IMG/VR virus record: IMGVR_UViG_3300028586_000397
Span: 1 to 49,197 of that record
Direction: 5' to 3' (one strand)
Source of the DNA: a virus
Taxonomy: Duplodnaviria; Caudoviricetes
Length of the DNA: 49,197 bases
A program made the translations under genes and the position numbers. The notes under the pieces were generated by a model. It was not told where the DNA came from. It made no database searches and saw nothing but the letters and a program-made list of their open reading frames with translations. Below, one piece after another: positions 8,577-44,560 of the stretch (the first letter of the stretch is position 1; each line of letters opens with the position of its first letter).

Positions 8577-10721
8577 TTATGCAGCAACTTCGGTGCTGCA
8601 GGCTGAAAATGGATACGCTTCTGCCGGCGGCTTTTCTCTAGTCCAAACGCCACCTGGTGCGTAGTGGTAACCGGCCTCTGTGGCCACTTCGAGAAGCACT
8701 TGGGTCAGTTCCCCGCGTGGAGACAGGTGGATCGCATCGGTCAGTTCGCTTAGCCGTTCCGGCTGGTTGCGGACAAACTCAACCAGGTCAGCCCTGTGCA
8801 TGCTTTTCACGTCGATAGGCGTCGACGTCGTCAGTTCGGTGAGGTCGGCTTGCGCGACTAAGCGATAGACGCCGCCATAGGGTGCGTAGCCGAGCTGACT
8901 GGCGGCGTCGACGAAGGCGGCCGTCAGCTCATCAGTGCCGCGATCGATAATTGCGCGTGCCAGGTCGTTGATCTGATCGGGGTTGGCTTCGATGAAGCCG
9001 AGTAGCTCGCCCGGCTGCAGCTTGGCCAGGTCAGGCGTAACGCTCCCGGCCTTTGCTGGCTCTGCATCAGCAGCGGCCGCCTTCTTAGCCTTCTGCTGCG
9101 CTGCCGGCTTTTTCTTCTTGTCGGCCTTGGCCTTTGCCTCAGCGTCAACCTCAGCGCGGATCTTCTTTGCATCGACCTTGGTGCGGACCGCGAAGGCGAG
9201 AATGTGCTCGGGCTTGGCTTTTGGATCGGTGTACACGCTGATGTCGAGTTCGCGGCAGAGCGAGCAATCGCGGATGAACTGGTTCAGCTGAGCTGGCGTC
9301 AATGCGGCGACGGCCTTCTTGATGTTCTCGCGGTACGGGTAGGCGACCGTCGCTTCGGTCCAGCCATACAGCTCCATCAGAAATTTCTTTGCAATCGTTC
9401 CGCCTGGCAGGCTGTCAAACATCTGCGCAGCGATGAGGCGAAGGTCCTCGTCGACCAGGTTCATCATCAGCGAGGCGTCGTGCGTTGCCTGCAGCAGGCG
9501 CTTGCGGTACTCGCGCTCGAGCTTTGCCGCAGCCTCCATCTCCTTTTCACGCGCGCTGCTCGAGCTCGACTTTTGCGGGACCGCCAGGCCTTTTGCCTGC
9601 AGTGCTGGCACTAGGTCGTCGAGCTTGATGATGTGGTGCAGCGTCTTGTCGTCGCTGCTCTCCAGGAGAGTCGTTTGCGGGAGGCTCTTGCCCAACATTT
9701 GGCGGTACGTGCGGTTCTTTTCGTCGGACCAGACCTTCTCGTCGACGGCGACATACCCACCGTTGAGACTTGTCGGGCCATAACGCATCACCTTTTTCGC
9801 CTCGGCGCCAGACAGGATAATCATTCCCGCGTTTCGCGCCTCCAGCTTGACGTTCTCGCGATGCTTCTCTTCCTTAGCTTTGAAGCACGTTGGATCGGTG
9901 CAGACGTCTGCACTGACGCCCTCGAACACCTCGGGCTGATTGCCGGCACGTTGCGGGCACGTGGTGCACGGGCCAAGGGCTGGTATCAGGGTTGCATCCG
10001 CAATCTTGAACACTGCTTTCTTCAGGTTCAGCATGTAGTTGCGTTCAACGTGGGTGACTGCCGTCCGATAAGACATGACCCCACCCCAATCGCTGGTGAC
10101 CTCTTTGAGGCATTTCTCCTGAAGTGTCTTCACTGGAATGCGTGCGATCAGCAGGGCGATCGATGCCGAGATTTTGTTCTCGAAAAAAACATCACGGGCC
10201 TTCTCGGTCAGGGCGCAGAGCTTCAGGCGGCCGTAGATGTACGAGCGGCTTTTGTTGACCTCCTCGGCCAGCTGGTCGGCGTTGTACCCGTGCTGCTGCA
10301 TCAGCAACTGGTATCCCTCCGCCTCCTCAATCGGATGCGGATCTTCACGCTGCAGGTTCTCAAGGATGCGGATCTTGGCCGCGTCCAGGTCGCTCAGATT
10401 GCGGCACAGTGCTGGGATCGTGGTCATGCCGGCGATGATCGATGCGCGGTAACGGCGCTCGCCAGCGACGATCTCGTATTCCTCCGGCGCCTCCTGGGTC
10501 GGCGTGACTGGGCGGATCAGGATCGGCTGCGCAACGCCCATCGCCTTGATGCTGGCGGCCAGCTCCTGCAGCGCGAGTTCATTGAAGCGCTTGCGATTGT
10601 CGGGAGACGGGCGCATGCGCACCAGTGGGTACAGGCCGTAGACGCCCTGGTCGGTGACGAGTTCGTCGACAACGATGGTCGAAGCGGCCGGCGCCAGGGT
10701 GGTGATAGCAGTATTGGTCAT
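8577..10721 (-). CDS. ParB/RepB/Spo0J family protein (714 aa)
   Basis: LAASIKAMGVAQPILIRP, IVAGERRYRA (CTPase motif), ENLQRED, HTH ADQLAEEVNKSRSYIYGRL, CxxC...C...C cluster. Confidence 0.92.
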   Translation of the reverse strand: MTNTAITTLAPAASTIVVDELVTDQGVYGLYPLVRMRPSPDNRKRFNELALQELAASIKAMGVAQPILIRPVTPTQEAPEEYEIVAGERRYRASIIAGMTTIPALCRNLSDLDAAKIRILENLQREDPHPIEEAEGYQLLMQQHGYNADQLAEEVNKSRSYIYGRLKLCALTEKARDVFFENKISASIALLIARIPVKTLQEKCLKEVTSDWGGVMSYRTAVTHVERNYMLNLKKAVFKIADATLIPALGPCTTCPQRAGNQPEVFEGVSADVCTDPTCFKAKEEKHRENVKLEARNAGMIILSGAEAKKVMRYGPTSLNGGYVAVDEKVWSDEKNRTYRQMLGKSLPQTTLLESSDDKTLHHIIKLDDLVPALQAKGLAVPQKSSSSSAREKEMEAAAKLEREYRKRLLQATHDASLMMNLVDEDLRLIAAQMFDSLPGGTIAKKFLMELYGWTEATVAYPYRENIKKAVAALTPAQLNQFIRDCSLCRELDISVYTDPKAKPEHILAFAVRTKVDAKKIRAEVDAEAKAKADKKKKPAAQQKAKKAAAADAEPAKAGSVTPDLAKLQPGELLGFIEANPDQINDLARAIIDRGTDELTAAFVDAASQLGYAPYGGVYRLVAQADLTELTTSTPIDVKSMHRADLVEFVRNQPERLSELTDAIHLSPRGELTQVLLEVATEAGYHYAPGGVWTREKPPAEAYPFSACSTEVAA
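9898..9913. repeat. 16-bp palindrome GTGCAGACGTCTGCAC, copy 1 (inside parB); candidate parS
   Basis: Perfect palindrome; recurs at 17690, 27774, 41914 and 44541. Confidence 0.75.
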
Positions 10722-11071
10722 GCGTGCTCCATGCGCGTTTTCCGTGCGCGCTTAGGTGGTGCGCCAGCAGGGGCTGGATTGACGGTGAAGAAGCCAATAT
10801 CGAACTCTGCCCGTGGCATGCGGATGTGTACGAGCCAACCAGTGAACCCTGGCTTGGGCTGCAGTGGTGCCCGCACAGGCTCCGCGACCTCAATGCCCCG
10901 CGAGCGCATCAGCTCGAAAACCTTGGGAAGTTCGAGGCGGCGGCCGTCAGTAGAGACCTGCTCTGCCGAACATGCGTGAGTGGCGCAAAACGAATTCAAA
11001 GCGGCCAGATCGCGAGCGGCTTCTAGCGCGCAATGCAGTTCGCCGGTGCCTAAGCGTGAGGCCATGGTCAT
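10718..11071 (-). CDS. Hypothetical phage protein (117 aa)
   Basis: ATGA-coupled to both neighbours. Confidence 0.65.
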   Translation of the reverse strand: MTMASRLGTGELHCALEAARDLAALNSFCATHACSAEQVSTDGRRLELPKVFELMRSRGIEVAEPVRAPLQPKPGFTGWLVHIRMPRAEFDIGFFTVNPAPAGAPPKRARKTRMEHA

Positions 11072-11211
11072 GCCGGCCTCACTGAAATGCTGTAGATACG
11101 ATCGCCCTGTTGTTCGGCTGCAGAGTCGTAGGCCAATGCTGCTGATGGTGCGATGGCGTAGTACATCCGCGGTTGCCCGCCTGTTCGAACTGTCACGTGA
11201 AAGCGCCGCAT
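11068..11211 (-). CDS. Small hypothetical protein (47 aa, MRRFHVTVRTGGQPRMYYAIAPSAALAY...), first gene of the early-left operon
   Basis: GGAGG RBS, stop overlaps the next start; below the ORF-track cutoff. Confidence 0.7.
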   Translation of the reverse strand: MRRFHVTVRTGGQPRMYYAIAPSAALAYDSAAEQQGDRIYSISVRPA

Positions 11212-11245
11212 ATTGCCTCCTGTAGTGGGAAGTGATAACGGCTCA

Positions 11246-11289
11246 ATATTACTAAACGGTAATGAGGTACGTCAACACCGTTTGGTAAT
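11246..11289 (-). promoter_or_regulatory. pL-like promoter with two operators (OL)
   Basis: TTGACG-18bp-TAATAT on the minus strand; operators ATTACTAAACGGTAAT and AACACCGTTTGGTAAT. Confidence 0.75.
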
Positions 11290-11316
11290 ATTCGGGATAT
11301 TGCGGGAATTTGGGCG

Positions 11317-11342
11317 AAAAAAACCGACACTCTAGGCGTCGG
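11317..11342 (-). terminator. Putative terminator of the repressor transcript
   Basis: CCGAC/GTCGG stem followed on the minus strand by a T7 run. Confidence 0.5.
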
Positions 11343-11364
11343 CAGTCAGTGAAAAAATGTCATC

Positions 11365-11384
11365 TACTGTATATTTGTACAGTA
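11365..11384. promoter_or_regulatory. LexA (SOS) box TACTGTATATTTGTACAGTA
   Basis: Perfect CTGT-N8-ACAG with TA flanks and AT-rich spacer, 60 nt upstream of the ORF at 11444. Confidence 0.88.
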
Positions 11385-11443
11385 ATTTTAGTGTAGGATA
11401 TTACGCACACGTAATATTGCGCGTGCAGAACGCAGGTGGCGAC

Positions 11444-11596
11444 GTGGAAGAGTATTTCAAAGAGATGAAGGAAGCGCTCCGGGCGATGACCCCGGAGGCG
11501 CGGAAGGAGATGCTGAAGCTGGCAAGGGCAATGGCTGCAAGGTATCCCGCCCAGGCTCAGCCATTGCTACGATTGGTGAGCGGAACCCGTTCCTAG
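11444..11596 (+). CDS. Putative SOS-inducible antirepressor (50 aa)
   Basis: GTG start after AGGTGG, downstream of the LexA box, convergent with and overlapping the repressor 3' end; function inferred. Confidence 0.6.
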   Translation: MEEYFKEMKEALRAMTPEARKEMLKLARAMAARYPAQAQPLLRLVSGTRS

Positions 11597-12010
11597 CTCG
11601 CTGGTAGCGGCCGATTCAGCCGCAATTTCGACGAGACCTTTTCCAGCGTCGCCCGCGTGACGGTAGTGCGTCAATAAGTCCAATTCTCGCTGTGTAACGT
11701 ACACCAGAGCCATCCACTGCGGCTCTACCGTTTCCACGATCCTGAGCCGTGCTCCTTGGCCGATCTTCTGAGGCTCGTTCGCGTTCGGCGCCGTGTCGTC
11801 GACTGGAGTATCCAGCCACCCTGTAGGTAAGTTGGATTTAGCTTCGAGCTTTCTGGCTTTTCTTTCCCCGAACGATTTTTTTGTGCGAAGCAGAGCCGAG
11901 ATCTCGCCCTGGTTCTCGCCCGTCTCGTCGATGTACCTGGCCTGCGAGCCCTCGTATCGCTCGTCTATCAGCTGCGCCAGTCGCGCCCGCCGGATGTCTT
12001 GAATTTCCAT
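11567..12010 (-). CDS. Prophage repressor (CI-like HTH, no S24 peptidase domain)
   Basis: IRRARLAQLI...SFGERKARKLE...LPTGWLD N-terminal domain; divergent from cro; only 147 aa. Confidence 0.85.
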   Translation of the reverse strand: MEIQDIRRARLAQLIDERYEGSQARYIDETGENQGEISALLRTKKSFGERKARKLEAKSNLPTGWLDTPVDDTAPNANEPQKIGQGARLRIVETVEPQWMALVYVTQRELDLLTHYRHAGDAGKGLVEIAAESAATSELGTGSAHQS

Positions 12011-12030
12011 AACTCCGATTGTCCTAGCCG

Positions 12031-12089
12031 ATTACTAAAGAGTAAATCACCAAATGGTATTGACTTTTCTCATTACCGTTTAGTAATAT
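12031..12089 (+). promoter_or_regulatory. pR-like promoter with three operators (OR)
   Basis: TTGACT-18bp-TAATAT; operators ATTACTAAAGAGTAAA, ATCACCAAATGGTATT and ATTACCGTTTAGTAAT; 12069-12089 is the exact reverse complement of 11246-11266. Confidence 0.8.
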
Positions 12090-12097
12090 GCTTGCCC

Positions 12098-12355
12098 ATG
12101 GACAAACTACTTCGATTTCTCAACGCCCTGACAAAGGGCGAGCGCACTGTTTTTTGTGCTGCGTGTGAAACCAGCGAGCGCTATTTGCGAAAAGCGGTTA
12201 GCGCGCACCAGCGACTCGGCGCAGACCTGTGCATCAAGATCGACAAAGCCTCGAAGGGCGAGATCCGCTGTGAGGATCTTCGTCCCGATGTTGACTGGGC
12301 CTACCTCCGAGAGTCAGTCAAGCAGCCAAGTTGTGATGACAACGAAGAGATGTGA
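12098..12355 (+). CDS. Cro/YdaS-like transcriptional regulator
   Basis: HTH followed by the IRCEDLRPDVDWAYLR C-terminal motif; divergent from the repressor. Confidence 0.85.
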   Translation: MDKLLRFLNALTKGERTVFCAACETSERYLRKAVSAHQRLGADLCIKIDKASKGEIRCEDLRPDVDWAYLRESVKQPSCDDNEEM

Positions 12356-12453
12356 GGCCAGGAGTGCGAACGGTGAAGAATCGAACGCGAGTCGATATGG
12401 AAATAGTAAGGCGCTCGTTGCAAAACGGGCAACCACAAGAAAAGGGGTTCACT

Positions 12454-12912
12454 GTGGATATTAAGAAATCTTTTCTCTCGATGATCAAGGCTTTTCCTGG
12501 CGGATGGGATGCCATGACGGGCGCTTTGGGTATGAGCCGTGATGCCCTCGAAAACCGCATCTTCGAACGCAAGGGCCAGGGGGTTCTCGTCGAAACCGCA
12601 CTGCAGATGCAGAAGCTCTCAGATACGACATGTTTCGCTGAGGCGGTCGCAGCAGTAAGTGGGGGTACGTTCGTCAAGCTGCCGGAAGTCGAGGTAGAGA
12701 ACGCCGACATCCTGCGCAAATTCAATGAGCTTTATGCGGAGCTGGGCCGCTTCTCGAGCGATTTTAACCAGGCCACAGCGGACGACGAGATCGATCGCCG
12801 GGAGGAGGCGCTGCTGCGCGACGATGCCGACCGGATGCATAAGACGCTGTCCGAGCTGGTTGCGCTCACGATGCGCGTGTATCGCAAGCCAGCGGGTCAG
12901 GAGGGAGCATGA
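12454..12912 (+). CDS. YmfL/CII-like phage regulatory protein
   Basis: MIKAFPGGWDAMTGALGMS..ALENRIFERKGQ and ADDEIDRRE motifs; GTG start after AAGGGG. Confidence 0.8.
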   Translation: MDIKKSFLSMIKAFPGGWDAMTGALGMSRDALENRIFERKGQGVLVETALQMQKLSDTTCFAEAVAAVSGGTFVKLPEVEVENADILRKFNELYAELGRFSSDFNQATADDEIDRREEALLRDDADRMHKTLSELVALTMRVYRKPAGQEGA

Positions 12913-13142
12913 CAACTGGCGCACGATTCGCTGAATGTGCCGACCTGGTCAGCGTAGGCGTACCGGCTACCACCACTGGCCCCGCGCCAGTTACGCGCCC
13001 CCTTTCCCCCGGGAATAGGGCACCCATCCGCGTGATGCGGCCGGGCGCATTTGACTACCGCGATATCCCATCGCTGTGCGGCCAGACACGCGTGCCGTTC
13101 AAAAGCAGCATTACGATCACCGACGAGGCAAAGCAAGGATGA
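12909..13142 (+). CDS. Hypothetical phage protein (77 aa)
   Basis: ATGA overlaps on both sides; RPGAFDYRDIPS motif. Confidence 0.65.
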   Translation: MTTGARFAECADLVSVGVPATTTGPAPVTRPLSPGNRAPIRVMRPGAFDYRDIPSLCGQTRVPFKSSITITDEAKQG

Positions 13143-16024
13143 GCAGCGAGCAACAAGTTTTGGCTCAGATGGTCGAGAGTGGTATTTCGCGACTTCCGCC
13201 AACGCCGCTGATCACCACTGGAAAATTCAGGCGTTTCGGGAAGGACAGCAAGGGCTGGTACATCCTGCGCGAGCTCGAATTGGACAGCGGCAAAACGGTG
13301 CTGACGGGTGCGTTCGGTTGGTTCCAGGGTGAGAACCGCAATACGGTGCCAGTCAAGGTCGACGCTGAAGCAATGTCGCCCGAAGATCGCCAGGCATATA
13401 AACGCAAGCTGCGCGAAGCGGAAAAGGCCGAGGAGGAGAAGCGTCAGCGCGAGATTCGTCTCGCAGCCAACCGTGCGCGTGACCAGTGGAATAAGGCTGC
13501 TGGCGTGCCGGTCGCGCATCCCTACCTGGTGCGCAAACAGGTTCCGGGCGAGGGGGTGCGTGTAGGCCATGACGGTATGTTACTCATCCCTCTCGTGCGC
13601 GATGGCCAGCTGCTCGGCCTGCAAAAGATCAGCGCGGCCGGCGTGAAAAAGCTGAATGCCGGCATGGATGCGATCGGCGTCATGCACGTGCTTGGCCAGC
13701 TCGACGGTGCGCCCGTCATCGCCCTGGGTGAGGGATATGCGACCTGTGCTAGCGCACGTCTGGCGCTCGCGCCTGGCTATGACTTGCCTGTCGTCGTCGC
13801 CCTGAATGCCGGCAACCTGATTCACGCCGCCCGCTGGTTGCGTAAGCACTACCCGACTGCGCACCTGCTGTTCCTCGCTGACGACGATTACCTGCTTGCC
13901 GAGCGGTTTGCCAGGCTCCTGCAGGACGAATTCAAGATCTCGTCGCCGGCGCCGATCGACGGCGTCACGCATCGCGTGGTTGCCGATGATGGTGAGACCG
14001 TCGACGTTATGGCCACCTGGCGTGCGGACATCAACGGTATCCGGTACATCAGCACCGATATCCGCAGGGGTAGGGCGGTCAGCTCGCCCACGTTCTCGAA
14101 CGCTGGCGTCTCAAGTTGCCACACTGCGGCCAGAGAAGTGGGCAATGCTTCGGTCGCTATTCCATTGTTTGCCGTCGACCGGGCCGGCCGCAAGCTGACC
14201 GACTTCAACGACCTGCATATCGAGGAAGGGCTCGACAAGGTCGCGGCGCAGATCGGGGTTTCCCTTCTCGCTGCGGAGCAGCGCAATGTGGACTCCCTGC
14301 CTGCACCCGCGCAAGCGGCCGAGGTGCCACTGCAGCCTGCGGCCGTCCTCTCCCTCGCTGCGCAGCAGCACAATACTCAGCCCTTCACCCCATCCGCGCC
14401 AGCGGTCGTGCAGGCACCGCAGTCGGGACCGATCCTTCCCTTCGCTGCGCAGCAGCGCACGACCGGTTCTCCCGCCCCCTCTCCGGCGGCGGCCGCAGCC
14501 GACGATTCATTTTCGGAGGGTTCGGTCCCAAATTCCCCCCCTCCCCCCGGTGCGGAGCAGCCGCGCGCGAGCGCGACAGGCGAGACGCCTGCGGAAATCG
14601 CGGCGCGATTTGACGAGGAAGCGGCTGGCAGTGGGGCGAAAACGCCACCAGCTGGCGACCGCTCCGCGCCGGGGGAGGGGGGCAACGACGAGGCGCCGCA
14701 TAAGAAGGACAAGCCCAAGAAGGTCTACGGGCAGGCCCACTGGGACGCCGTCGACGACGTGCTCGAGAACTTCATCCTGATCTACGGCGAAGACCTGGTA
14801 TGGGACTGCCGGCAGCGCATGCTGATGAAGGTCTCGGCCATGCGCACCATCGTGGCCAACAACGATGTGATGAAGTTCTGGTCCGGCGAGTCGCGTAAGT
14901 GGGTGCTGAAAAAGAACATCGTGTTCGATCCGACCGAGGCTCCCAGTCCGGCCAAGAGCGGTCCCACGGCGACGGTCAACCTGTTCAGCGGCTGGAAGAT
15001 GCGCCCGAAGAAGGGCAACTGCATGCAGATCCAGGTGCTGCTGTCGCACCTGTGTGACGGCAACGACGACCTGGCGACGTGGATACTGCGCTGGCTCGCC
15101 TACCCGCTGCGCAACCCAGGCGCGAAGATGGAAACCTCGATCATCATGCACGGCGACGAGGGCAGCGGTAAAAACTTCTTCTTCGAGAAGGTGGTCAAGG
15201 CCATTTACGGCGAGTACGGCTACGTCATCGGCAATGCGCAGCTGGAGTCGAACTTCAACGACTGGGCATCCATGAAGCTGTTCATGGTGGCCGACGAGGT
15301 GGTAACTCGGGCCGAGCTTAAGCAGATGAAGGGCAAGCTCAAGTACCTGGTGTCGGGCGACACCGTCATTGTCAATCCGAAGGGGCTGCCCGAGCACAGC
15401 GAAGCGAACCAGATGAACTTCGTGTTCCTGTCGAACGAGCTGCAGCCGCTCGCCCTGGACAAGACTGATCGCCGCTACCTGGTGGTGTGGACGCCGCCGG
15501 CGCTCGGCCGCGAGTTCTACGTGGGGGTGGCCAATGAGATCAAGGCGGGCGGCATCGAGGCCTTCTACCACTACCTGGTGTACGAGCTGGACATGGGTGA
15601 CTTCAACGAGCACACGAAGCCGCTCTACAACGAGGCCAAGGACAAGCTCATCGAAAAGAGCCTGGCGCCGGCCGAGCGCTTTTACCGCGAGTGGTCGAAA
15701 GGTCTGCTTCCTTTGCCATTCATCACGTGCGGCGTGCAGCAGCTATATGACGCCTTCCAGGTGTGGTGCAACCGGTCGGGCGAATCGAAGTACACGTCAC
15801 TGACCATTTTCAGCCCGACCGTCGAGCGCTATGCCGGCAGCGTTCTGCAGAAGAAAGCAATCCTCTACGAGTACGGCGAGAAGGTGAAGCAGCGGTTCGT
15901 GTTCCTGGTGGGCGACCAGCCGCATGGCAAGTCTTTCCGCGAGTGGGCGGAGGATGCCTGTGGCCTGTTCGATTCACAGCTGAAGTCGTACCGCGCGCGT
16001 GGCGTGGGTGATGTTGAGGGTTGA
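13139..16024 (+). CDS. Primase-helicase replication protein (TOPRIM + SF3 helicase)
   Basis: HPYLVRK, GEGYAT, ADDD, TDFNDL primase motifs; GDEGSGKN Walker A, VADE Walker B, FLSN, DRRY. Confidence 0.92.
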   Translation: MSSEQQVLAQMVESGISRLPPTPLITTGKFRRFGKDSKGWYILRELELDSGKTVLTGAFGWFQGENRNTVPVKVDAEAMSPEDRQAYKRKLREAEKAEEEKRQREIRLAANRARDQWNKAAGVPVAHPYLVRKQVPGEGVRVGHDGMLLIPLVRDGQLLGLQKISAAGVKKLNAGMDAIGVMHVLGQLDGAPVIALGEGYATCASARLALAPGYDLPVVVALNAGNLIHAARWLRKHYPTAHLLFLADDDYLLAERFARLLQDEFKISSPAPIDGVTHRVVADDGETVDVMATWRADINGIRYISTDIRRGRAVSSPTFSNAGVSSCHTAAREVGNASVAIPLFAVDRAGRKLTDFNDLHIEEGLDKVAAQIGVSLLAAEQRNVDSLPAPAQAAEVPLQPAAVLSLAAQQHNTQPFTPSAPAVVQAPQSGPILPFAAQQRTTGSPAPSPAAAAADDSFSEGSVPNSPPPPGAEQPRASATGETPAEIAARFDEEAAGSGAKTPPAGDRSAPGEGGNDEAPHKKDKPKKVYGQAHWDAVDDVLENFILIYGEDLVWDCRQRMLMKVSAMRTIVANNDVMKFWSGESRKWVLKKNIVFDPTEAPSPAKSGPTATVNLFSGWKMRPKKGNCMQIQVLLSHLCDGNDDLATWILRWLAYPLRNPGAKMETSIIMHGDEGSGKNFFFEKVVKAIYGEYGYVIGNAQLESNFNDWASMKLFMVADEVVTRAELKQMKGKLKYLVSGDTVIVNPKGLPEHSEANQMNFVFLSNELQPLALDKTDRRYLVVWTPPALGREFYVGVANEIKAGGIEAFYHYLVYELDMGDFNEHTKPLYNEAKDKLIEKSLAPAERFYREWSKGLLPLPFITCGVQQLYDAFQVWCNRSGESKYTSLTIFSPTVERYAGSVLQKKAILYEYGEKVKQRFVFLVGDQPHGKSFREWAEDACGLFDSQLKSYRARGVGDVEG
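14259..14510 (+). repeat. Three degenerate 87-bp (29-aa) tandem repeats in the primase-helicase linker
   Basis: TCGCTGCG(G/C)AGCAGC anchors at 14268, 14355 and 14442 (period 87). Confidence 0.75.
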
Positions 16025-16280
16025 CCGTCCACATTGCTACTAGCTCCAACATGCGTAAGTCTTTGAATAATAAAGCGATGTGGAAGGTATTGAGGGTATT
16101 GGTGGTTTTTTGAGGCTCCATGCGCGTGCGCACGTGAGTAATAAGGCGAGCCAAGAGAAGAAGCGACGAGATTAATTGCTGTCTGATTTTATTTAAACCA
16201 TCAATAGTCTCAATACTGTCAATAAAGACAATGAAAACAATGAGTTAAGTATGTTGAGGGTATGTTGACGGTGTTGAGGG
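16012..16280. other. Putative phage replication origin
   Basis: AT-rich non-coding region after the primase-helicase with about ten 9-bp T(G/A)TTGA(G/C)GG-type repeats in both orientations. Confidence 0.7.
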
Positions 16281-16320
16281 TTTGCTAAAAAGAAACTTTA
16301 GGAAATTCAGGAGGCAGGGG

Positions 16321-16608
16321 ATGGCAAGAGGAAGCATGCGCGAACAGATGCCGACAGTGGCGGCCTGGATCGATCAGATGCGGGCAGCGTTCGGCAAAGA
16401 GCACATCGATCGGCAGATCCGGGCCGGTATGAAAGGGCAGCCAGTCTTCTTCGCCAGCGAGAACGGGCACACACTCGGGACGAAGCCAAGGCGCGGCTGG
16501 CGGGTACTAAAGGATGAGCGGGGTAACCCGATAGCAGTAGATGGCGATGGCAAACGGTGGCGATATGTGGACGGCGAGTACCGTCCTGTGGATCAAGGGG
16601 AAACGTGA
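16321..16608 (+). CDS. Hypothetical phage protein
   Basis: GGAGG RBS; MREQMPTVAAWIDQMRAAFG...FFASENGHTLGT. Confidence 0.7.
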   Translation: MARGSMREQMPTVAAWIDQMRAAFGKEHIDRQIRAGMKGQPVFFASENGHTLGTKPRRGWRVLKDERGNPIAVDGDGKRWRYVDGEYRPVDQGET

Positions 16609-17288: not shown

Positions 17289-17302
17289 TTGGAAATAATG
17301 CG

Positions 17303-17332
17303 TTGACGCAATCGCCCCAGCTCAGCTATATT
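17303..17332 (+). promoter_or_regulatory. pR'-like late promoter
   Basis: TTGACG-18bp-TATATT directly after the putative Q gene. Confidence 0.6.
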
Positions 17333-17359
17333 TTCGCCATGCTCGCAGTCAATGTAAGC

Positions 17360-17384
17360 AAAGCCCGCTGATGCGGGCTTTTTT
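17360..17384 (+). terminator. tR'-like terminator
   Basis: AAAGCCCGC-TGAT-GCGGGCTTTTTT. Confidence 0.85.
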
Positions 17385-17448
17385 GCGTTTACAGCCTGCA
17401 TCGCAGCGTCCAGGCTCTGCGTCTCCCCTTGCACCGATGGGTGCTTCA

Positions 17449-36370: not shown

Positions 36371-37938
36371 CAGCGCTGATTTTTGATACGGCTCGTCTGG
36401 CCGATAGCAGCTTCGTTTTCGATAGCCCTTCAATTGCACCTGCAGAGCCTGCAGCGCCGTCGATTACCGACGCGGACTTTGCGGCCTGGCTGGCCAGCGA
36501 TGACGCGATCACGAACATCCTGGTCGAGACCTGGGCGCTCGTCGACGGCGTGCGCACGCCGTTCTTCTGGTCGACCAACGGCTACACCACCGAGGGCACG
36601 AACAATCCGGTCTTCTATGCGCCAGTGGTGGGCGTGAGCATCCCGTTCACGGAGGCGCTGTCGCTGACGTCGACGGCGTCGCTGTCGGCCGGCGACATCG
36701 AGATCGACAACACCAACGGGATGAACGAGCACTTCGCACACTACATCTGGGCAGATGAGGTGCTGGCCGTGGTGGGCGATGTCCGCTGGCCGCGTTCCGA
36801 CTACCGCCCGATCTTCGTCGGCCACTCGGTGGGCCTGGTGCGCAAAGGTCCGCGCGCATTCGCGCTGCGCTTGCGGGACATGATGGAGGGGTTGAACTAC
36901 CCGATCAGCGAGCGCAAGTTCGGCGGCGCCGGCGTGAACGCGGACACCCTGATCCCCCTGACCTTCGGGGAGTGCTGCAACGCCAGTGGGGAGTGGAGCA
37001 ACACCAACACGCTCGAGCGTCAATGGCACGACGGCCCGATCGAGGGCATCGTCGAAACGCGCGCCAACGGCATTCCGATCAGCGAGCAGGTCATCGTGTC
37101 CGAGAGCACCGGCAAATCGCTCCTGACGGTGAATAACGAAAGCGCGACCATTACCGCCACTGTCCAGGGTGACAAGTTCGGCGGGGTCTTCCGCAAAACG
37201 ATCGCGAAGCTGATCGAACGCCTCATCACTGGCTACGGCAAGGACGTCGGCCGCTACACCCTGGCCAACATCGATACGGGGAATTTCGCGGAGTTCGACG
37301 CGGCGCATCCGCAGCCGGTTGGGCTGCACGTGCGCGAGCGCCTGAACGTCATCGATGCGTGCACGATGCTTGCCGGCAGCGTGGGTGCCCAGCTGGCCCC
37401 TTCACTCGACGGCAAGCTGCAGCTGATCCAGATCGCGTTGCCGGCTGCAGGACCTGCAATGGAGATCCGGGCCAAGCACATGGTCGACGGCACTTTGCGC
37501 CACGTGCAGCACATCGACCCGGTGGCGGCCGTGAAGCTGGGCTACTGCCGGAACTGGACGGCGCAGCCAGGACTGCAGAGCAACCTGCCGGCTGAACACA
37601 AGGTGCTCTTCGAGAAGGAGTGGCCGCTTACCGTGACCCGCGTCGACGATGACATAAAGCGTAAGTACAAGCTCGACGGCGATCCGGTCATGCGCGCCAC
37701 GATGCTGCTGCGCGGCGACGATGCGGCGCCTGAAGCCGATCGCGAACTGGTCCTGTGGGGGCCGGGGCGCGACATCTACGAATTCGACGGTATCCCCGAT
37801 CTGCTCATGCTCAAGAAGGGACAGCGCCTGGTCGTCTACCACGAGCAGGACGGAATGATCGCCGGCGTCGAAGCCCAGGTGATCGAGATCCAGCGCGACT
37901 GGTGGACGCGCACCGTAACTGTGAGGTTCCTGAAATGA
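36367..37938 (+). CDS. Tail tip/hub protein
   Basis: GDIEIDN, PLTFGECCN, KLGYCRNWT; coupled in the tail operon. Confidence 0.7.
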   Translation: MTALIFDTARLADSSFVFDSPSIAPAEPAAPSITDADFAAWLASDDAITNILVETWALVDGVRTPFFWSTNGYTTEGTNNPVFYAPVVGVSIPFTEALSLTSTASLSAGDIEIDNTNGMNEHFAHYIWADEVLAVVGDVRWPRSDYRPIFVGHSVGLVRKGPRAFALRLRDMMEGLNYPISERKFGGAGVNADTLIPLTFGECCNASGEWSNTNTLERQWHDGPIEGIVETRANGIPISEQVIVSESTGKSLLTVNNESATITATVQGDKFGGVFRKTIAKLIERLITGYGKDVGRYTLANIDTGNFAEFDAAHPQPVGLHVRERLNVIDACTMLAGSVGAQLAPSLDGKLQLIQIALPAAGPAMEIRAKHMVDGTLRHVQHIDPVAAVKLGYCRNWTAQPGLQSNLPAEHKVLFEKEWPLTVTRVDDDIKRKYKLDGDPVMRATMLLRGDDAAPEADRELVLWGPGRDIYEFDGIPDLLMLKKGQRLVVYHEQDGMIAGVEAQVIEIQRDWWTRTVTVRFLK

Positions 37939-40358
37939 CCACTGCAATCAACGATATCGACCGCCTGCTGCAAGCGGCGCCTGTACGCGTCATCCACCTG
38001 GGCCAGGCGCAGGTGATCGTCACTGCGGCGCCGCCGCTCTTCCACCTGCTGGCCGATGGCATGCCGGAATACCCGGAGATCGAGCTCGAGGCGACGGTCA
38101 TCGGTCTGACTGGTGAGGTCGTCTGGACGTGCTCGGGCGGCACCCTGAGCGAAGTGAACGGCGCCACCGCGAAGCTGCGCTATGTCGACCTGGTGGCCGG
38201 CGCCGCCACCGTGGTCGCGTCAGTCACCTATGCCGGCGAGGAGATCATCGGCCGGGCCAGCATCTCCGTGGTGCGCGATGGCTCGGCCAGCGCGGGCGCC
38301 AAGCTCCTCGAGCTCAATCCGTCGGAGCAGGTTTTCAAAATCAACGCTGCAGGCGAACACAGCCCGGCCGCCATTTCGCTGACCGCCATCGGCCAGAACC
38401 TGGCGGGCACGCCGCGGTTCACGTTCGCCTCCGGAAGCGGGACCCTGGCGGCCGGCGCGACGTCGTCGCAAAAGGTCCTGTCCTTCGACAATATGGTGAC
38501 CGACACCGTCACGATTCAGGTCGAGCAGGACGGTCAGGTCGACCGCGTCACGATCAGCAAGCTGCGTGACGGAGGCAACGGCGCCGCCGGCATCACGGCA
38601 CTGCTGACGAATGAGACGGTGGCACTGCCAGCCAGCAGCGCGGGTGCTGTGTCGAGCCTGACCACGGCTGTGTGCACGATGAAGGTCTACCGGGGCACCG
38701 TCGACGATACCGACAACTGGTCGTTCTCCTTCTCGCCGGCGTCCAACGCGGCCAACGTCGCGTACACCACCGACAAGAGCACCGTCACCGTCACGGGGAT
38801 GGGCGCCGGCGTCGACGCGGCGTTCATCGATATCAAGGCGAGCAGGGACGGTGCAGCGCCGATCAGGAAGCGCTTCTCGCTGACGAAGAGCAAGGCCGGT
38901 GCGAAGGGCGAGGAGGGCACTGGCCTGCAGGGGCAACGCGGCACCGTCAACATCCCGGTGGCGATCACCGGGGTAGCATGGTCCGACGGCGCCGCTGCAG
39001 CAGGCCTCACGAACGGCGGCTATGGCTTGCCGATCCGCTTCGACCTGGTCACGCTGGTCAACACGGCTGCCGGGTACATCGAGACCAAGGTCTGGGACGG
39101 CGACACCTGGGAAGATCCGGGGCTGATCCTGAACGGCAACCTGACGGCACCAGGCTCGATCCTGACGCGCGCACTTGCAGCTGAGGCTGTAACTGCTGAA
39201 AAGATTAATAGTCGGGGTTTAGATATTAAAGACCGTGCGGGAAATGTGATCTTCTCGTCAGGCATCCCACTTGCACAGCAGGTAGCAAGCAACCCCAACC
39301 TCGCGCCAAATTGCATGGGCCTCACCGTCTTCAACGGCGCCAGTAAGAACAGAAACGGTGACGCCCGTTTTGGTGATGGGCAGTTTCTCTGGCTACCGGA
39401 GACGCAAACGAATGGTTTATACGTAGCAGGCGAAACTGGCGCGCTCAACATCCCGCGCGGTGCGCAATACACGGTCAGTTTTGATGCGAACTGCACATTG
39501 GCCGGTAGCCAGCGACGTCTGTGGGTGGACCTTGTCGGCGACGGAATTGATACTGCTGGTCTCGGAATTATCCCAACGACGACAATGACCCGGCATAAAT
39601 TTACCGAGACCATGCCTGATTTGCCCGGCGCCACCGGAGTACGCCTGCGCGTGTTCTCCACAGAGGCTTGGGGCGGTCACATCTGCATCGCAAATATTAA
39701 AGTAGAGCTGGGCGGCAAAGAAACCCCGTGGAACGATTCGGTTATCACCCCGGAAAATGCCTCGACCTTTATCCTAGCCGCCGCCATCAAGTTGGCGATG
39801 ATCGACAAGGCGTCGATCGGCCAACTGTCTGCGCTTTCAGCTTACCTCGGGACCGTGGAGCTCGGGCCAAACGGGTGGCTTCGTCAGGGCATGACCGACT
39901 ACAAGGTCGGCAAAGGCATTTGGATGGGCATGCATGGCGGTGTGCCTAAACTCGTGGTTGGCGACCCAAACAGCGGCATGCTGGAATGGGATGGCAACCA
40001 GCTGATACTCCAGAAGGCAAAAGAGGTCTCTCCGTTCAGGGGCACCTTGCCTTCCATTGACCGACGCAGCCAGGTTAATACGTCGACGCTGGTGACTTAC
40101 GCAACCCTGACTCCGACCCTTTTTGACGGTGCTTCCCCCTATCAGTCCTATCGCTGGTCAATGAACGCGGAAGTCGGTCCCAGCGGCGAGGTAGTTATGG
40201 CTGGCGACCCTCGCGGCGGATCGATCACGATCAAAGGGCGGGGCAGCAACCTCGTCAATGTGGTTTGGGTATCACTCGAAGTCGTAGACGCCAATGGCGC
40301 CGTCGCGCGCATGGGGTGTCAAATTTATTGGCAGCACGGATCAGGACAAATTCAATGA
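37935..40358 (+). CDS. Tail fiber/host-specificity protein
   Basis: Ig-like repeats, short collagen-like GAKGEEGTGLQGQRG, LAAEAVTAEKI, CBM-like insert. Confidence 0.75.
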   Translation: MTTAINDIDRLLQAAPVRVIHLGQAQVIVTAAPPLFHLLADGMPEYPEIELEATVIGLTGEVVWTCSGGTLSEVNGATAKLRYVDLVAGAATVVASVTYAGEEIIGRASISVVRDGSASAGAKLLELNPSEQVFKINAAGEHSPAAISLTAIGQNLAGTPRFTFASGSGTLAAGATSSQKVLSFDNMVTDTVTIQVEQDGQVDRVTISKLRDGGNGAAGITALLTNETVALPASSAGAVSSLTTAVCTMKVYRGTVDDTDNWSFSFSPASNAANVAYTTDKSTVTVTGMGAGVDAAFIDIKASRDGAAPIRKRFSLTKSKAGAKGEEGTGLQGQRGTVNIPVAITGVAWSDGAAAAGLTNGGYGLPIRFDLVTLVNTAAGYIETKVWDGDTWEDPGLILNGNLTAPGSILTRALAAEAVTAEKINSRGLDIKDRAGNVIFSSGIPLAQQVASNPNLAPNCMGLTVFNGASKNRNGDARFGDGQFLWLPETQTNGLYVAGETGALNIPRGAQYTVSFDANCTLAGSQRRLWVDLVGDGIDTAGLGIIPTTTMTRHKFTETMPDLPGATGVRLRVFSTEAWGGHICIANIKVELGGKETPWNDSVITPENASTFILAAAIKLAMIDKASIGQLSALSAYLGTVELGPNGWLRQGMTDYKVGKGIWMGMHGGVPKLVVGDPNSGMLEWDGNQLILQKAKEVSPFRGTLPSIDRRSQVNTSTLVTYATLTPTLFDGASPYQSYRWSMNAEVGPSGEVVMAGDPRGGSITIKGRGSNLVNVVWVSLEVVDANGAVARMGCQIYWQHGSGQIQ

Positions 40359-40945
40359 CACGACCATTTCTCATGCTGCAGGGTGTAGACAAGATCATCC
40401 TCGGCCTCTCGTATGAAGCAGATCCAGACGACGGTCCGATACTGCCAAAAGCCCCGCAGGAGCCAGGTATCACACTGGTTCGATTCGACGGCGAGTTCTC
40501 GCGCGAGGGGCGCCGCGACAGCGAGGTGGCGCAGCTGGTTGGCGACGATATCGTATGGACCGAAACAGCCTCGCTGGAGCAGCTGCGCGAGGAAAAGGCG
40601 AGCGAAATCGGCGGTGCGTGTCGTGAGCACATCGAGCGGGGCTTCGAGTGTCTTGCGTTGGGGAGTTCGCACCTGTACCCGGCCAACGCGCAGGACCAGG
40701 CGAACCTGGTTGCGTCGGTGACCGACTCGCTGCTGGCCGGAGACGATCCCGACTGGCGTACGCCGTTTTGGTGCGTCGACGCGGTCAATCTCCAATGGGA
40801 GTTCCGCCAGCACACGGCCGCGCAGATCCGACAGGTTGGCCGCGAAGGCAAGGCATCGATCCTGGCGGCGATGCAGAAGAACGAAGCGTTGCGGCGCCAG
40901 ATAGCCGTGGCGACCGCTGAAGAACTTAAAACTATCACCTGGTGA
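40355..40945 (+). CDS. Tail fiber assembly-type protein (DUF4376-like)
   Basis: C...I..GF...ALG..H.Y...DQ.NL...HTAAQIRQV...EELKTITW pattern. Confidence 0.75.
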   Translation: MTRPFLMLQGVDKIILGLSYEADPDDGPILPKAPQEPGITLVRFDGEFSREGRRDSEVAQLVGDDIVWTETASLEQLREEKASEIGGACREHIERGFECLALGSSHLYPANAQDQANLVASVTDSLLAGDDPDWRTPFWCVDAVNLQWEFRQHTAAQIRQVGREGKASILAAMQKNEALRRQIAVATAEELKTITW

Positions 40946-40949
40946 CCGA

Positions 40950-41780
40950 ATGCCGAATCTGATAATCATGAACGACAACGCAGCCGGCCGTGCTGTTATC
41001 TCGGCCGCGCCAGTGGCTCCTGGCATGGCGGCGGCCGCAATGCTGACCGACGTGAAGTCCCATGTGTGCCGATCGACGAGCACGGAGATGGAGATCGTCT
41101 TGACCTGGGACGTCGCCGAGCGGATCGGCGGTGTTCACCTGCCCTGGTGTAACGGCTCGCCGCTGACCACGATCGAGGTCCTCGGCTATTCCGACAAGGC
41201 CGGCGTCAACAACGTGCTCAGCACTGGCGTGCGGCTTGCCTGCCCCGCCCGCGCACGCGCGCTGCTGCCGCCCTGGACGCCGCGCAGCGCTGCCAGCGCG
41301 TATGCCTACGGCGGAGGCGCGCATGCCTTTACCTGGTTCGAGAACACGAGCGTCAAGCGTCTAGTCATCCGGCTCAAGGACCCTGGAAACCTGCAGGGCT
41401 ACCTCGAGGTCGCGCGGCTGTTCGTTGGCGAGGCCACCAGCCCGGATGAAAACGCGGCCTATAGCCCGGCTCGCACTGCCATCAGCACGAGCACGTCGTT
41501 CCGGACCGGCGCCGGCGATCGTCGTTCGATCCGAGGGACGAAGAGCTGGCGGCTCGCGATCGAACTGCCAAGCATGACGGAGCGCGATCGCGCGTTCATC
41601 TGCGATATGTCGGTGGCCAACGACATCGAGGTGCCGGTCATCGTCAGCCTGTACCCAGGCGACCCTTCGCATGAGCGTGAGCGGGACCATCAGATTTACG
41701 GTGCCCTGGTGCAGACCGCGGCGATGCGCCGGCCAAACTTCGTCGACCACGCCACGTCGCTTGAATGGGAGAGCATGTAA
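40950..41780 (+). CDS. Minor tail protein (possible distal-tail-like)
   Basis: GYLEVARLFVG, RTGAG, VIVSLYP; end of the tail operon. Confidence 0.6.
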   Translation: MPNLIIMNDNAAGRAVISAAPVAPGMAAAAMLTDVKSHVCRSTSTEMEIVLTWDVAERIGGVHLPWCNGSPLTTIEVLGYSDKAGVNNVLSTGVRLACPARARALLPPWTPRSAASAYAYGGGAHAFTWFENTSVKRLVIRLKDPGNLQGYLEVARLFVGEATSPDENAAYSPARTAISTSTSFRTGAGDRRSIRGTKSWRLAIELPSMTERDRAFICDMSVANDIEVPVIVSLYPGDPSHERERDHQIYGALVQTAAMRRPNFVDHATSLEWESM

Positions 41781-41835
41781 GGCATAGCTTCGCCTGCTGA
41801 GCGGGCGTTTGGTGGATGCGCAACACGTCGAAGAA

Positions 41836-41878
41836 GTCTCATTTCTCCCTAGAAATGAGACAGGTCGATTGTTAACGT
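41836..41878 (+). promoter_or_regulatory. Late promoter element 3: GTCTCATTTCTCCCTAGAAATGAGAC plus -10 TAACGT
   Basis: Identical to the copy at 24469; upstream of the lysis cassette. Confidence 0.75.
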
Positions 41879-41913
41879 TGGGAGGTCTTATTCCTCCCGA
41901 CCCAGACCTCGAT

Positions 41914-41929
41914 GTGCAGACGTCTCCAC
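41914..41929. repeat. Palindrome copy 4 (GTGCAGACGTCTCCAC, 1 mismatch)
   Basis: In the holin leader. Confidence 0.7.
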
Positions 41930-41946
41930 TAAAAATGAAAGAAGCT

Positions 41947-42375
41947 ATGTCCCTTGAAACTACCGCCGGCGCCGGTGCCCTGATCAAACTCTTCGGCGGC
42001 GCCGCCCTTGCCGGCGGCGCTGCGGCCGCTATCGGCTACATCGTCATGTGGCCGAAAAGCCGTCGTGAAGCGGCCAGCCGCTTTGCTTGCTCCATCGCCG
42101 CCTCGGTGATGTTCGGCCCGGCCCTGGCGATCGCGATGCACTCGGTCTGGCCAGGCCTGTTCGCGTCTGCCGGCGACCTCGCCGTGCAGGCTGGCGAAGC
42201 GCGCGACCTCGGCCTGCTGGTGGTCTCCGTTCCCTTCTTGGTGGTAGCCGCGCTGCCGGCGTGGTGGCTCCTTGGCGCCCTGGTCCTGTGGCTGGACAAA
42301 CGTCGCGGCAAGGACTTGGGCGAAATGGCTCAGGACGCCGCCGGTGTCGTGCGTGACGTGCGGGAGTCCTTGTAA
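41947..42375 (+). CDS. Putative holin
   Basis: Three hydrophobic segments, charged C-terminus, directly before the endolysin; alternative ATG at 41935. Confidence 0.72.
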   Translation: MSLETTAGAGALIKLFGGAALAGGAAAAIGYIVMWPKSRREAASRFACSIAASVMFGPALAIAMHSVWPGLFASAGDLAVQAGEARDLGLLVVSVPFLVVAALPAWWLLGALVLWLDKRRGKDLGEMAQDAAGVVRDVRESL

Positions 42376-42839
42376 TGCCGCCGACCGCATTCCTCAAAAT
42401 GCTGGTTCCCTTTGCGCAGGCCTGCCAGCGTGCCACGGGCGTGCCAGCGTCGATCACCCTGGCGCAGGCGGCAATCGAGTCGGGCTGGGGCGAGCGGGCA
42501 CTCGGAAACAACCTGTTCGGCATCAAGGCTGACCGGAGCTGGAAGGGCAAGACGGTCCAGTTCCGGACGCGTGAACACATCGCTGGCAGGGACTGGTCGA
42601 TCGTCGGCACCTTCCGTGCATATGACAGCTGGGAAGAGAGCATGGTCGACCACGCTCAGTTCTTCCTGAAAAACCCGCGCTATAACGCGTGCTTTAAGGA
42701 GACGACTGCCGAAGGTTGGGCGCGTGCTGTCGCTGCGGCCGGCTATGCCACCGATCCGCACTATGCGCAGGTGCTGATCGACGTCATGAAGGGCCGGAAC
42801 ATGGCCCAGTACGACGTCTGGCCAAAGGTGGCAGCGTGA
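42375..42839 (+). CDS. Endolysin, GH73 glucosaminidase (FlgJ-like)
   Basis: AQAAIESGWG, NNLFGIKA, FRAYDSW, GYATDP.Y. Confidence 0.93.
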   Translation: MPPTAFLKMLVPFAQACQRATGVPASITLAQAAIESGWGERALGNNLFGIKADRSWKGKTVQFRTREHIAGRDWSIVGTFRAYDSWEESMVDHAQFFLKNPRYNACFKETTAEGWARAVAAAGYATDPHYAQVLIDVMKGRNMAQYDVWPKVAA

Positions 42840-43318
42840 GCCGTCTCGAAAGCATCCTGATCAGCGTTATTGCCTTGGCCGGCTTGCTGTCCGTGGGCGG
42901 CATCGGCGTGCGTTGGTACGGCACCATGCAGTATCACGCGGGGCATATCGCCGCCATCGAGGAACGGGCAGCTGCAGACAGCCTGGCTATCCTTAACCGC
43001 ACCAAAGAAAACGTCGTCATGGCCATGAGTCAGGGCGCCGCCAACCTGAAAATCACCGAGGTCAAAAATGAAGAGCTTGCTCCTGTGCGCGAGCGTATTG
43101 TCACTCAGCGCGTGTACGTCGGTTCCGCAATCTGTGGATCTGCTACCGCCACCGAAAACGCCGGCGCCGGCGGCGGCGACGAAGCCAATCCCGCCGGCCG
43201 GCTGGTTCGAGAAGACGTTGAGCGAGATATTAGAGCGCTGAAGGTAGCGGTCGAGGAGCACCTGGCCACTGGTAGAGCGTGCCAGGCCGTGCTGCGTGAG
43301 AATGCATTGGCGCCGTAA
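42836..43318 (+). CDS. Inner-membrane spanin (Rz-like)
   Basis: GTG overlap, N-terminal TM, helical periplasmic region, ACQA near the C-terminus. Confidence 0.8.
   Translation: MSRLESILISVIALAGLLSVGGIGVRWYGTMQYHAGHIAAIEERAAADSLAILNRTKENVVMAMSQGAANLKITEVKNEELAPVRERIVTQRVYVGSAICGSATATENAGAGGGDEANPAGRLVREDVERDIRALKVAVEEHLATGRACQAVLRENALAP
43068..43241 (+). CDS. Outer-membrane spanin lipoprotein (Rz1-like), embedded in Rz
   Basis: GAGG RBS; MKSLLLCASVLSLSAC lipobox; Pro-rich 57 aa in the +1 frame; not in the ORF track. Confidence 0.85.
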   Translation: MKSLLLCASVLSLSACTSVPQSVDLLPPPKTPAPAAATKPIPPAGWFEKTLSEILER

Positions 43319-43360
43319 TGGACTTCCATCTTGCAACGCCGGAGGGCGATATTTATCTGT

Positions 43361-43570
43361 TCAGCTACGACGGACACGCGGTGCAGATCCCGCTAACTCC
43401 TCCAGCGGCCTCAACGAGAAGATGCGTTGCTGAGCAAGAAAAGTCCACGCCCGCGCCCACCGAATCGCCGTAGCGCGTGACCGATCATCTGCAGCAATAG
43501 CGAATCGATCCAACGCAACAGATGCCCGATAGCGGGCGTATTGGCTGGCGGTAAGAAGTGGGGGTTTCAT
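43361..43570 (-). CDS. Small hypothetical protein (moron, 69 aa)
   Basis: Antisense ORF between the lysis cassette and the methylase; AIRWARAW motif. Confidence 0.5.
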   Translation of the reverse strand: MKPPLLTASQYARYRASVALDRFAIAADDRSRATAIRWARAWTFLAQQRIFSLRPLEELAGSAPRVRRS

Positions 43571-43734
43571 AAACACACTATACCGCTAGTTAAAGACAGG
43601 GCGCCAGGTCCGATTGCGTCAACAATCGAACCTGGCCTCAATCCACTGACGCAGCCAGTGAACCGAGCAAAGGCTCTGCCACCTTCCGGAAGGCGGGCGG
43701 AGTCTAGCATGTTTATTAAGAAAAAGGTTTACAG

Positions 43735-44529
43735 ATGGCAACCCCAATCGTTCCATGGCTAGGCGGCAAACGTCGCTTGGCTGACCACATTATTCCTCAG
43801 TTCCCCGCTCATAAGTGCTACGTGGAGGTGTTCGCTGGCGGCGCTGCGCTTTACTTCATGCGGCCGCCTGCAGACGTCGAGGTGATCAACGACATCAACG
43901 GCGAGCTCGTTCGGCTCTACCGCGTCGTGCAAAACCACCTCGAGGAATTCGTGCGGCACTTCAAGTTTGCGCTTACCAGTCGAGAGGTGTTCAAGTGGCA
44001 CCAGGTGACGCCACCCGAGACCCTGACGGATATTCAAAGGGCGGTGCGGTTCTTCTATCTGCAGCAGCAATCGTTTGGGGGCAAGGTGCAGGGTCAGTCC
44101 TGGGGCACGGCTACTACGGCGCCCCCGATCAACCTGCTCCGCATTGAGGAGAACCTCTCGGCCGCGCACCTGCGGCTCGCTGGCACGTACATTGAAAACA
44201 TGGACTGGCACAAGCTGATGGAGCGCTACGACCGGCCACATACGCTCTTCTACCTGGACCCGCCATACTGGGAGACTGAGGGTTACGGCGTCGAATTTCC
44301 CTTCGACGAATACGTACGCATGGCTGCGTTGTTGAAGCGGCTGAAGGGTAAGGCGGTCATCAGCCTGAACGACCATCCGGACATCCGGCGGGTCTTTGCC
44401 GACTTCCAGATGGACACCGTGCCGATTAAATACTCTTGCGGTTCAGATGCGGCAGGGCGTGGCACGCAGCGATCAGAAGTTGTGATCTACAGCTGGGACC
44501 GTACAGCAGAGCCTGCAGGCTTGTTCTAA
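43735..44529 (+). CDS. DNA adenine methyltransferase, D12/Dam class (orphan)
   Basis: PWLGGK, YVEVFAGGAA, NDIN, YLDPPY. Confidence 0.93.
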   Translation: MATPIVPWLGGKRRLADHIIPQFPAHKCYVEVFAGGAALYFMRPPADVEVINDINGELVRLYRVVQNHLEEFVRHFKFALTSREVFKWHQVTPPETLTDIQRAVRFFYLQQQSFGGKVQGQSWGTATTAPPINLLRIEENLSAAHLRLAGTYIENMDWHKLMERYDRPHTLFYLDPPYWETEGYGVEFPFDEYVRMAALLKRLKGKAVISLNDHPDIRRVFADFQMDTVPIKYSCGSDAAGRGTQRSEVVIYSWDRTAEPAGLF

Positions 44530-44536
44530 TATTTCG

Positions 44537-44560
44537 GGCTGTGCAGACGTCTGCACAGCC
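44537..44560. repeat. Palindrome copy 5 (24-bp perfect GGCTGTGCAGACGTCTGCACAGCC)
   Basis: Intergenic between the convergent methylase and receiver genes. Confidence 0.75.

Follow-up and report, generated by a model that had tools for sequence, protein, structure and literature searches.

The 49,197-nt stretch of DNA analysed here (IMG/VR record IMGVR_UViG_3300028586_000397; hereafter the window) contains an integrated lambdoid prophage that encodes an orphan ParB protein and carries five dispersed copies of a 16-bp palindrome, GTGCASACGTSTGCAC. The palindrome is very likely the docking and loading site of the prophage's own ParB, the two forming a candidate pair, because it was found almost only in the company of this parB gene and is written inside the gene itself. 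As to what the pair does, we lean slightly towards a ParB clamp that, without ParA, would load at the five sites, coat the phage genome and brake the late and lysis genes, with no segregation motor involved. As the record spans the window only, genome-wide tests were made on relatives. The features concerned are:

5112..46368: integrated lambdoid prophage of ~41.2 kb, with the att core ATGATGGACTGGAC at the 5' end of dusA
8577..10721 (-): orphan ParB of 714 amino acids, with a CTPase fold (42-124), a helix-turn-helix (HTH, 126-211), a Cys4 domain, a predicted dimerisation domain, a linker and repeats
9898..9913: site 1, perfect, forming the parB codons S-A-D-V-C-T
17690..17705: site 2, one mismatch, in the late leader, ending 13 nt before the ATG of the first late gene at 17719
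27771..27792: site 3, a 22-bp perfect palindrome that lies within a 64-codon open reading frame (ORF) preceding the tail tube gene rather than in a leader
41914..41929: site 4, one mismatch, ending 5 nt before ORF 41935-42375, a likely holin
44537..44560: site 5, a 24-bp perfect palindrome between the convergent Dam methylase and receiver-domain genes

Distribution of the palindrome and of parB

A motif scan of the window returned exactly five matches to the 16-bp palindrome at up to three mismatches, at 9898 (none), 17690 (one), 27774 (none), 41914 (one) and 44541 (none), and no place elsewhere has fewer than four mismatches. Shuffled sequences held 0.39 matches on average and two at most, and not one of 100 shuffles reached five. 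All five sites lie between the att repeats (5112-5125 and 46355-46368), and the ~8 kb of host flank is free of them. The preliminary description is upheld in each of these respects, as it is for the extension of two perfect copies to 22 bp (27771) and 24 bp (44537). Chromosomal parS has no match in the window at up to three mismatches.

The palindrome was present in 5/5 loci first found through the ParB protein. The circularity of choosing phages by ParB or by the motif was avoided by picking them through terminase (20 loci), primase (39) and capsid (59), which, once shorter and repeated records had been dropped, gave 42 distinct viral records of at least 30 kb. In this set, all 27 records with ParB carried two to six sites at up to one mismatch, and 14 of the 15 records without ParB carried none; the remaining one (G067, four sites) is 81% complete and ends where parB would begin. 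Core structural genes of three ParB-less phages (G095, G096 and G118) are 60-86% identical to those of the window, yet these phages have no site at up to two mismatches, at the homologous places included; site 3 is likewise missing from its homologous place in ParB-less relatives. When records were selected by the motif (the first 50 distinct records of at least 30 kb among 127 loci), 43 encoded this ParB, the other seven comprising four with a single site, G067 and two true exceptions, G047 and G075. Among the 46 window proteins, ParB alone is common to all six distant site-bearing phages, which include the HK97-type Aval, VarioGold and an acidobacterial prophage. About 680 viral stretches in the database contain the exact 16-mer. 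One family member, deposited as Comamonas 'plasmid unnamed2' (NZ_CP083453.1), is a complete circular phage of 36.9 kb with an integrase, this ParB and six sites.

The co-occurrence of motif and ParB that had been proposed as a check was thus borne out, with no ParB-bearing record of the set of 42 lacking the motif, and it recurs over many phage backbones that are unrelated to one another. The description of the sites as private to this phage has to be given up: the same 16-mer occurs in phages whose ParBs are only 35-50% identical, and it would therefore separate phage from host, not phage from phage.

Bacterial genomes gave a similar picture. Of 40 genomes with this ParB (40 of 80 loci), 31 have one to nine sites, against a reversed-motif control near 0, and most of the matches listed lie together, spanning about 35 kb of a single contig. 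The nine without a site are G017, which has five two-mismatch sites around parB, the Malikia genome G019 and seven with divergent homologues outside Betaproteobacteria. In a host-family sample of 121 Massilia-family genomes, of which three had been recognised as ParB carriers beforehand, all seven genomes with ParB have two to five sites, whereas of the 114 without it 102 have none, 10 have one and two have two or three. One of these last two (G211) has two sites flanking a truncated parB and a third in phage-like DNA; the other is G178, an unpublished genome that contributes this count alone. Some single sites lie away from phage genes (L495-L498). The genome-wide comparison thus finds the motif absent from nearly all host chromosomes and confined to prophages, and it is not equally common in the host. 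A REP-like (repetitive extragenic palindromic) element or a host parS is ruled out, since 102/121 Massilia-family genomes have no site.

The copy inside parB is preserved at synonymous codon positions across ParB proteins of 35-85% identity. Among 118 proteins below 90% identity, the Ala codon of the site is GCA in 80/89 cases vs 17% elsewhere in the same genes, and the preceding Ser is AGT in 57/61 vs 6%; Asp is GAC in 83/91 and Val GTC in 70/99, and the result holds at 75% identity. The motif search supplied some of these loci, and relatives are non-independent samples, but the effect is judged too large to stem from that. Judged by codon choice, the palindrome copy within parB is under selection at the DNA level, and parB and its site travel as one cassette. 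The selection of rare codons rules out the in-gene palindrome as a codon by-product of the ADVC motif. An in-gene site is also known from B. subtilis, in which spo0J carries parS within the gene.

No convincing alternative palindrome emerged for Malikia or for the divergent homologues with a changed recognition helix (Acidobacteria, a Myxococcus plasmid). The Myxococcus plasmid pYRE (L505, 36400-49050), which has its own parAB, encodes a distant ParB homologue with a different HTH amid about seven repeated units, each with two short palindromes.

The ParB protein

The ParB_N and HTH_ParB profiles match residues 42-124 and 126-211, and the CTPase motif is present as GERRYRA, in agreement with the preliminary description. 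Across homologues, GERR is found in 116/127 and ENxxR in 126/127, and the Cys4 domain at about residues 252-279 (CxxC..ADVC..C) in 127/127. The C-terminal part comprises a predicted dimerisation domain (about 392-529), a Lys/Ala-rich linker and two repeats of ~58 amino acids (564-623 and 637-693). The best relatives are in Massilia/Oxalobacteraceae. Solved structures place the protein closest to chromosomal ParB/Noc (E 7e-48, 136-166 bits), with KorB more distant (73 bits, E 2e-19), and the predicted fold (pLDDT, the predicted local distance difference test, 88) also matches chromosomal ParB/Noc.

The reported absence of ParA also held: the AAA_31 profile has no match in the window, while the positive control matched in 14/14 genomes. 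ParA is missing from all 42 related phage records as well. The ParA-binding motif (L/F/I)G(K/R)G(L/F/I), as defined in PMC12704722, occurs in 0/127 ParB homologues, although divergent motifs of the P1 type would escape this pattern. These negatives bear on the proposal that the sites serve to segregate or position extrachromosomal phage circles, a host ParA or SMC (structural maintenance of chromosomes) complex acting in trans. The kinship with chromosomal ParB and the Comamonas circle speak for such a role; besides the missing ParA and ParA-binding motif, integrases are present in these phages, that circle included, and the sites are dispersed and unclustered. We regard segregation as improbable, and of the purposes first suggested for the sites it is the weakest.

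Four specificity positions are known for ParB and Noc, with R173 reading the central G of parS (PMC7383237). At these positions the window ParB has R-R-A-S, compared with R-T-A-G in ParB and Q-K-K-R in Noc. Residue 173 is R or K in 64/66 homologues and R201 occurs in 0/66. The palindrome keeps the central ACGT of parS but departs from it in the outer arms, and the protein departs at residues 179/201.

The model of residues 226-560 is a confident one (pLDDT 92). Foldseek returned no match for them at E<=0.001, and the best VIA match (Z 5.5 over 65 residues, root-mean-square deviation 2.8) is uninformative. A homodimer prediction for the same residues, made with its own alignment, scored 0.78 vs 0.00 for the best of three controls, a mark reached by 20/30 solved pairs and 1/23 single chains; at least 77% of contacts recur between runs, with pLDDT of at least 77, and the contacts fall in 392-529. 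ParB is hence predicted to dimerise through a C-terminal domain that has no clear match in the PDB, which matters because such a dimer is needed to close the clamp.

The tails beyond this domain are modular. Among 129 tails (not dereplicated), 23 carry the C-terminal DNA-binding domain of H-NS, one an FtsK-gamma domain above the cut-off, another below it, and one a SWIB domain; in an Atlas viral cluster, FtsK-gamma is present in 89%. The H-NS tails have no oligomerisation part, and the TGRGK motif is intact in the one tail inspected. An Atlas search with the window's tail found only hypothetical clusters, and its 58-aa repeats match no named family.

Site placement and possible functions

Placement was surveyed at up to two mismatches in 30 hand-chosen ParB-bearing prophages, six of them cut at 40,000 nt and one a 40-kb slice, with genes called by a simple script. 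Of 145 sites, 23 lie in parB, 75 in other genes and 47 between genes (9% expected); 38 lie within 60 nt before a gene start, compared with 8% by chance. The genes hit vary between phages, and the late leader recurs as a position. That 98/145 sites fall inside the coding sequence of varying genes is what sites for loading at long range would show. The sites are spaced a little more evenly than by chance (28 non-independent genomes, combined p 0.004), and the base farthest from a site is ~7 kb away in the window and 8 kb in the median of the survey, within the ~15 kb quoted for ParB spreading (PMC9242446). In 29/30 prophages parB lies on the strand opposite to the late genes.

The timing of ParB can be read from its position, given the early-arm logic of lambda, in relation to one further feature:

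11567..12355: switch of repressor (-) and Cro-like (+) genes, with parB downstream of the repressor in the leftward early arm

Lying in this arm under the repressor, parB would be silent in the lysogen and expressed once the phage infects or is induced. ParB dimers would then dock at a site, close upon CTP binding and slide away; as every base of the 41-kb circle is within ~7 kb of a site, they would cover the entire genome. The swappable C-terminal tails (H-NS DNA-binding domains in many relatives, the Lys/Ala linker and repeats here) may add non-specific DNA bridging, and polymerase elongating through the late leader or towards the lysis genes would be held back by the clamps loaded there until replication gets ahead of them. 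Site 2 is suited to such a roadblock rather than to an operator, because it lies ~360 nt downstream of a sigma70-like promoter sequence (17303-17332) and its terminators. Site 4 does end 5 nt before an ORF, as had been described; the label of a holin leader comes from that ORF's place before the endolysin, the ORF itself being DUF6107/phrog_1024 and called a holin by no tool. Provided that ParB binds the site, the role in phage chromatin and as a late-gene brake has about an even chance.

Two observations concern the neighbourhood of parB. Directly after it lies a second P-loop ATPase gene (7760-8530, -), primase-C-terminal-like, whose family stands at most three genes downstream of parB in 11/30 relatives. 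Between the repressor and the parB arm, a CTGT-N8-ACAG box (11366-11381) is LexA-like and would put a small early gene under SOS control.

The early-arm position and the fairly even spacing would also suit a coat whose main purpose is to protect phage DNA, on entry or after excision, against host defences such as nucleases, restriction and SMC-type plasmid-cutting systems, or to mark DNA as phage. One family-wide site agrees well with a phage-versus-host mark, and a distant homologue on a plasmid with its own parAB lies near an ArdC anti-restriction gene. Yet shielding has no need of the enrichment just before gene starts, and the plasmid homologue has a different HTH and no site. We hold this explanation to be unlikely.

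A clamp that spreads and displaces H-NS-type silencers of the host, thereby switching phage genes on, is suggested by the 23 tails that end in an H-NS DNA-binding domain without its oligomerisation part, and by VirB, itself an orphan ParB and CTP clamp, which acts against H-NS (PMC10676424). Silenced DNA would be expected to be AT-rich; the sites are not so placed, 20% of the 145 falling in the lowest-GC fifth of 1-kb windows, which equals chance (a proxy only). The GC content of the prophage is close to that of the host, and 106/129 tails, the window's included, are without an H-NS domain. Such anti-silencing is, in our estimation, quite unlikely.

Several observations weigh against a braking ParB clamp, and some of them against the pairing of ParB and site. 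KorB needs KorA for strong repression (PMC11790492), and no KorA-like partner was found, the best family neighbouring parB in 11/30 genomes (linked neighbours). An H-NS domain is missing from the window ParB. Where the in-gene site is lost, an upstream site close by does not make up for it (p 0.43). The anticipated co-variation of HTH and site in relatives did not appear, as none of the HTH residues changes along with the GAC/CAC variant of the site, in a comparison of 5 high with 51 low rows in which the CAC variant clusters on the tree (a quick tree only). The related phages are non-independent samples. Malikia G019 has two ParB copies with the usual HTH and no site at one mismatch, one at two. 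Sites without ParB occur in G075 (five) and G047 (three, 95% complete), with no ParB_N in either, and CII-like genes are present in 28/30 ParB-bearing phages and in G075.

These last points would be explained if another protein, a CII-like activator or a host factor, bound the palindrome and the copy in parB were its operator or a by-product of the ADVC codons. CII-like genes are also found in the site-less G095, G096 and G118, however; the rare codons selected in parB are not a codon by-product, four of the five window sites and 122/145 overall lie outside parB, and nearly all host chromosomes have no palindrome. Another binder seems very improbable to us. G075 (L415-L416) and G047 (L413-L414) could be decayed, or could use the ParB of another phage; since phages have this address in common, one that co-infects, or one that has no ParB, could borrow or titrate another's clamp. 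The early arm of G075 holds a NACHT gene of 1011 aa in place of parB.

Extending the clamp-and-brake reading to the family is tentative, and we doubt it more than we credit it: betaproteobacterial integrating phages may build their own chromatin, in which a CTP clamp at a family-wide palindrome would drag interchangeable tails (H-NS DNA-binding, FtsK-gamma, SWIB, histone-like) over the genome, condensing it, timing lysis and excluding host silencers and defences.

Known ParB systems and other features of the prophage

Among known systems, chromosomal ParABS (ParB/Spo0J-parS; Caulobacter 6t1f, Myxococcus 7bnk) and Noc-NBS are closest in sequence and fold, sharing the CTPase boxes, the HTH and a 16-bp palindrome with a central ACGT. 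Unlike them, the prophage ParB has neither ParA nor a ParA-binding motif, carries the residues R-R-A-S, belongs with another site that is dispersed over the prophage, and has an extra Cys4 domain, a C-terminal domain without clear PDB match and variable tails; the Q-K-K-R residues of Noc are absent from the window ParB. The plasmid prophages N15 (sopAB, with dispersed centromeres) and P1 (parABS) likewise pair a phage ParB with dispersed palindromic sites partly within genes, but they encode ParA, whereas the present prophage integrates and has none.

KorB of RK2 has a cognate ParA, IncC, which the prophage ParB is without. It is a ParB-family clamp with 16-bp OB sites near and far from promoters, and controls genes at a distance (PMC11790492). 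The dispersed 16-bp sites of the prophage family, proximal and distal to gene starts (38/145 within 60 nt), are alike in this; the prophage ParB is more distant in sequence, no conserved KorA-like partner was found, and the carrier is a phage, not a plasmid. VirB-virS of the Shigella plasmid pINV employs an orphan ParB CTP clamp in transcription and is linked to H-NS (PMC10676424), unlike which some relatives of the prophage ParB carry the H-NS DNA-binding domain themselves, and the sites are palindromic 16-mers not in AT-rich DNA. The PRTRC ParBs (TIGR03734), together with related long ParBs of plasmids and integrative and conjugative elements, are likewise orphans on mobile DNA; the TIGR03734 match spans 38-293, including the Cys-rich region, but its score of 144.5 is below the cut-off of 278.6, no PRTRC cassette genes are among the window ORFs, and no site for PRTRC ParBs was reported in the literature searched. 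The best reading is that of a putative clamp with KorB- or VirB-like function that belongs to none of ParABS (no ParA), KorB (by lineage), Noc or PRTRC.

Orphan and prophage ParBs are common and mostly uncharacterised, a survey counting 872 prophage-encoded parB genes (PMC12704722); fusions of ParB to H-NS or FtsK-gamma are absent from its searched text and supplements. Gene 35 of VarioGold is a ParB, and palindromes go unmentioned in the accessible part of PMC9658991. The literature searched, in which subscription journals are thinly covered, yielded nothing on the palindrome or on the function of this ParB family, the 16-mer and 14-mer appearing in 0 papers and the 12-mer in two unrelated ones. 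Orphan prophage ParBs were thus known there without target site or function, and a specific candidate 16-bp target is now offered for a widespread family. VarioGold, a cultured, inducible Variovorax phage with six sites whose soil host is harmless, makes the ParB-site pair directly testable. If the proposal is true, phage development would join segregation and plasmid gene control among the uses of CTP clamps, and the pair would be orthogonal to chromosomal parS for DNA labelling.

The prophage gene set comprises an integrase, a repressor/Cro/CII-like switch, a primase, a lambda-type head, tail and lysis genes. The integrase is of a kind familiar from dusA-associated elements:

45192..46235 (-): tyrosine integrase, adjoining dusA (46319-47305)

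An SDH-type Clp-fold protease gene (5334-6305, +) lies as cargo at the left prophage end, and two stand-alone response-regulator receiver domains are encoded at 21794-22291 (-) and 44569-44964 (-). The tail region includes an 854-aa protein with a sialic-acid acetylesterase (SASA) domain (33806-36370, +), likely a tail protein that modifies surface polysaccharide. A second dispersed element, the 26-bp inverted repeat GTCTCATTTCTCCCTAGAAATGAGAC, occurs three times (22559-22584, 24469-24494 and 41836-41861), preceding the head, capsid and lysis modules, the third copy 50 nt upstream of site 4; it is likely the operator of a Mor-family activator (21175-21453).

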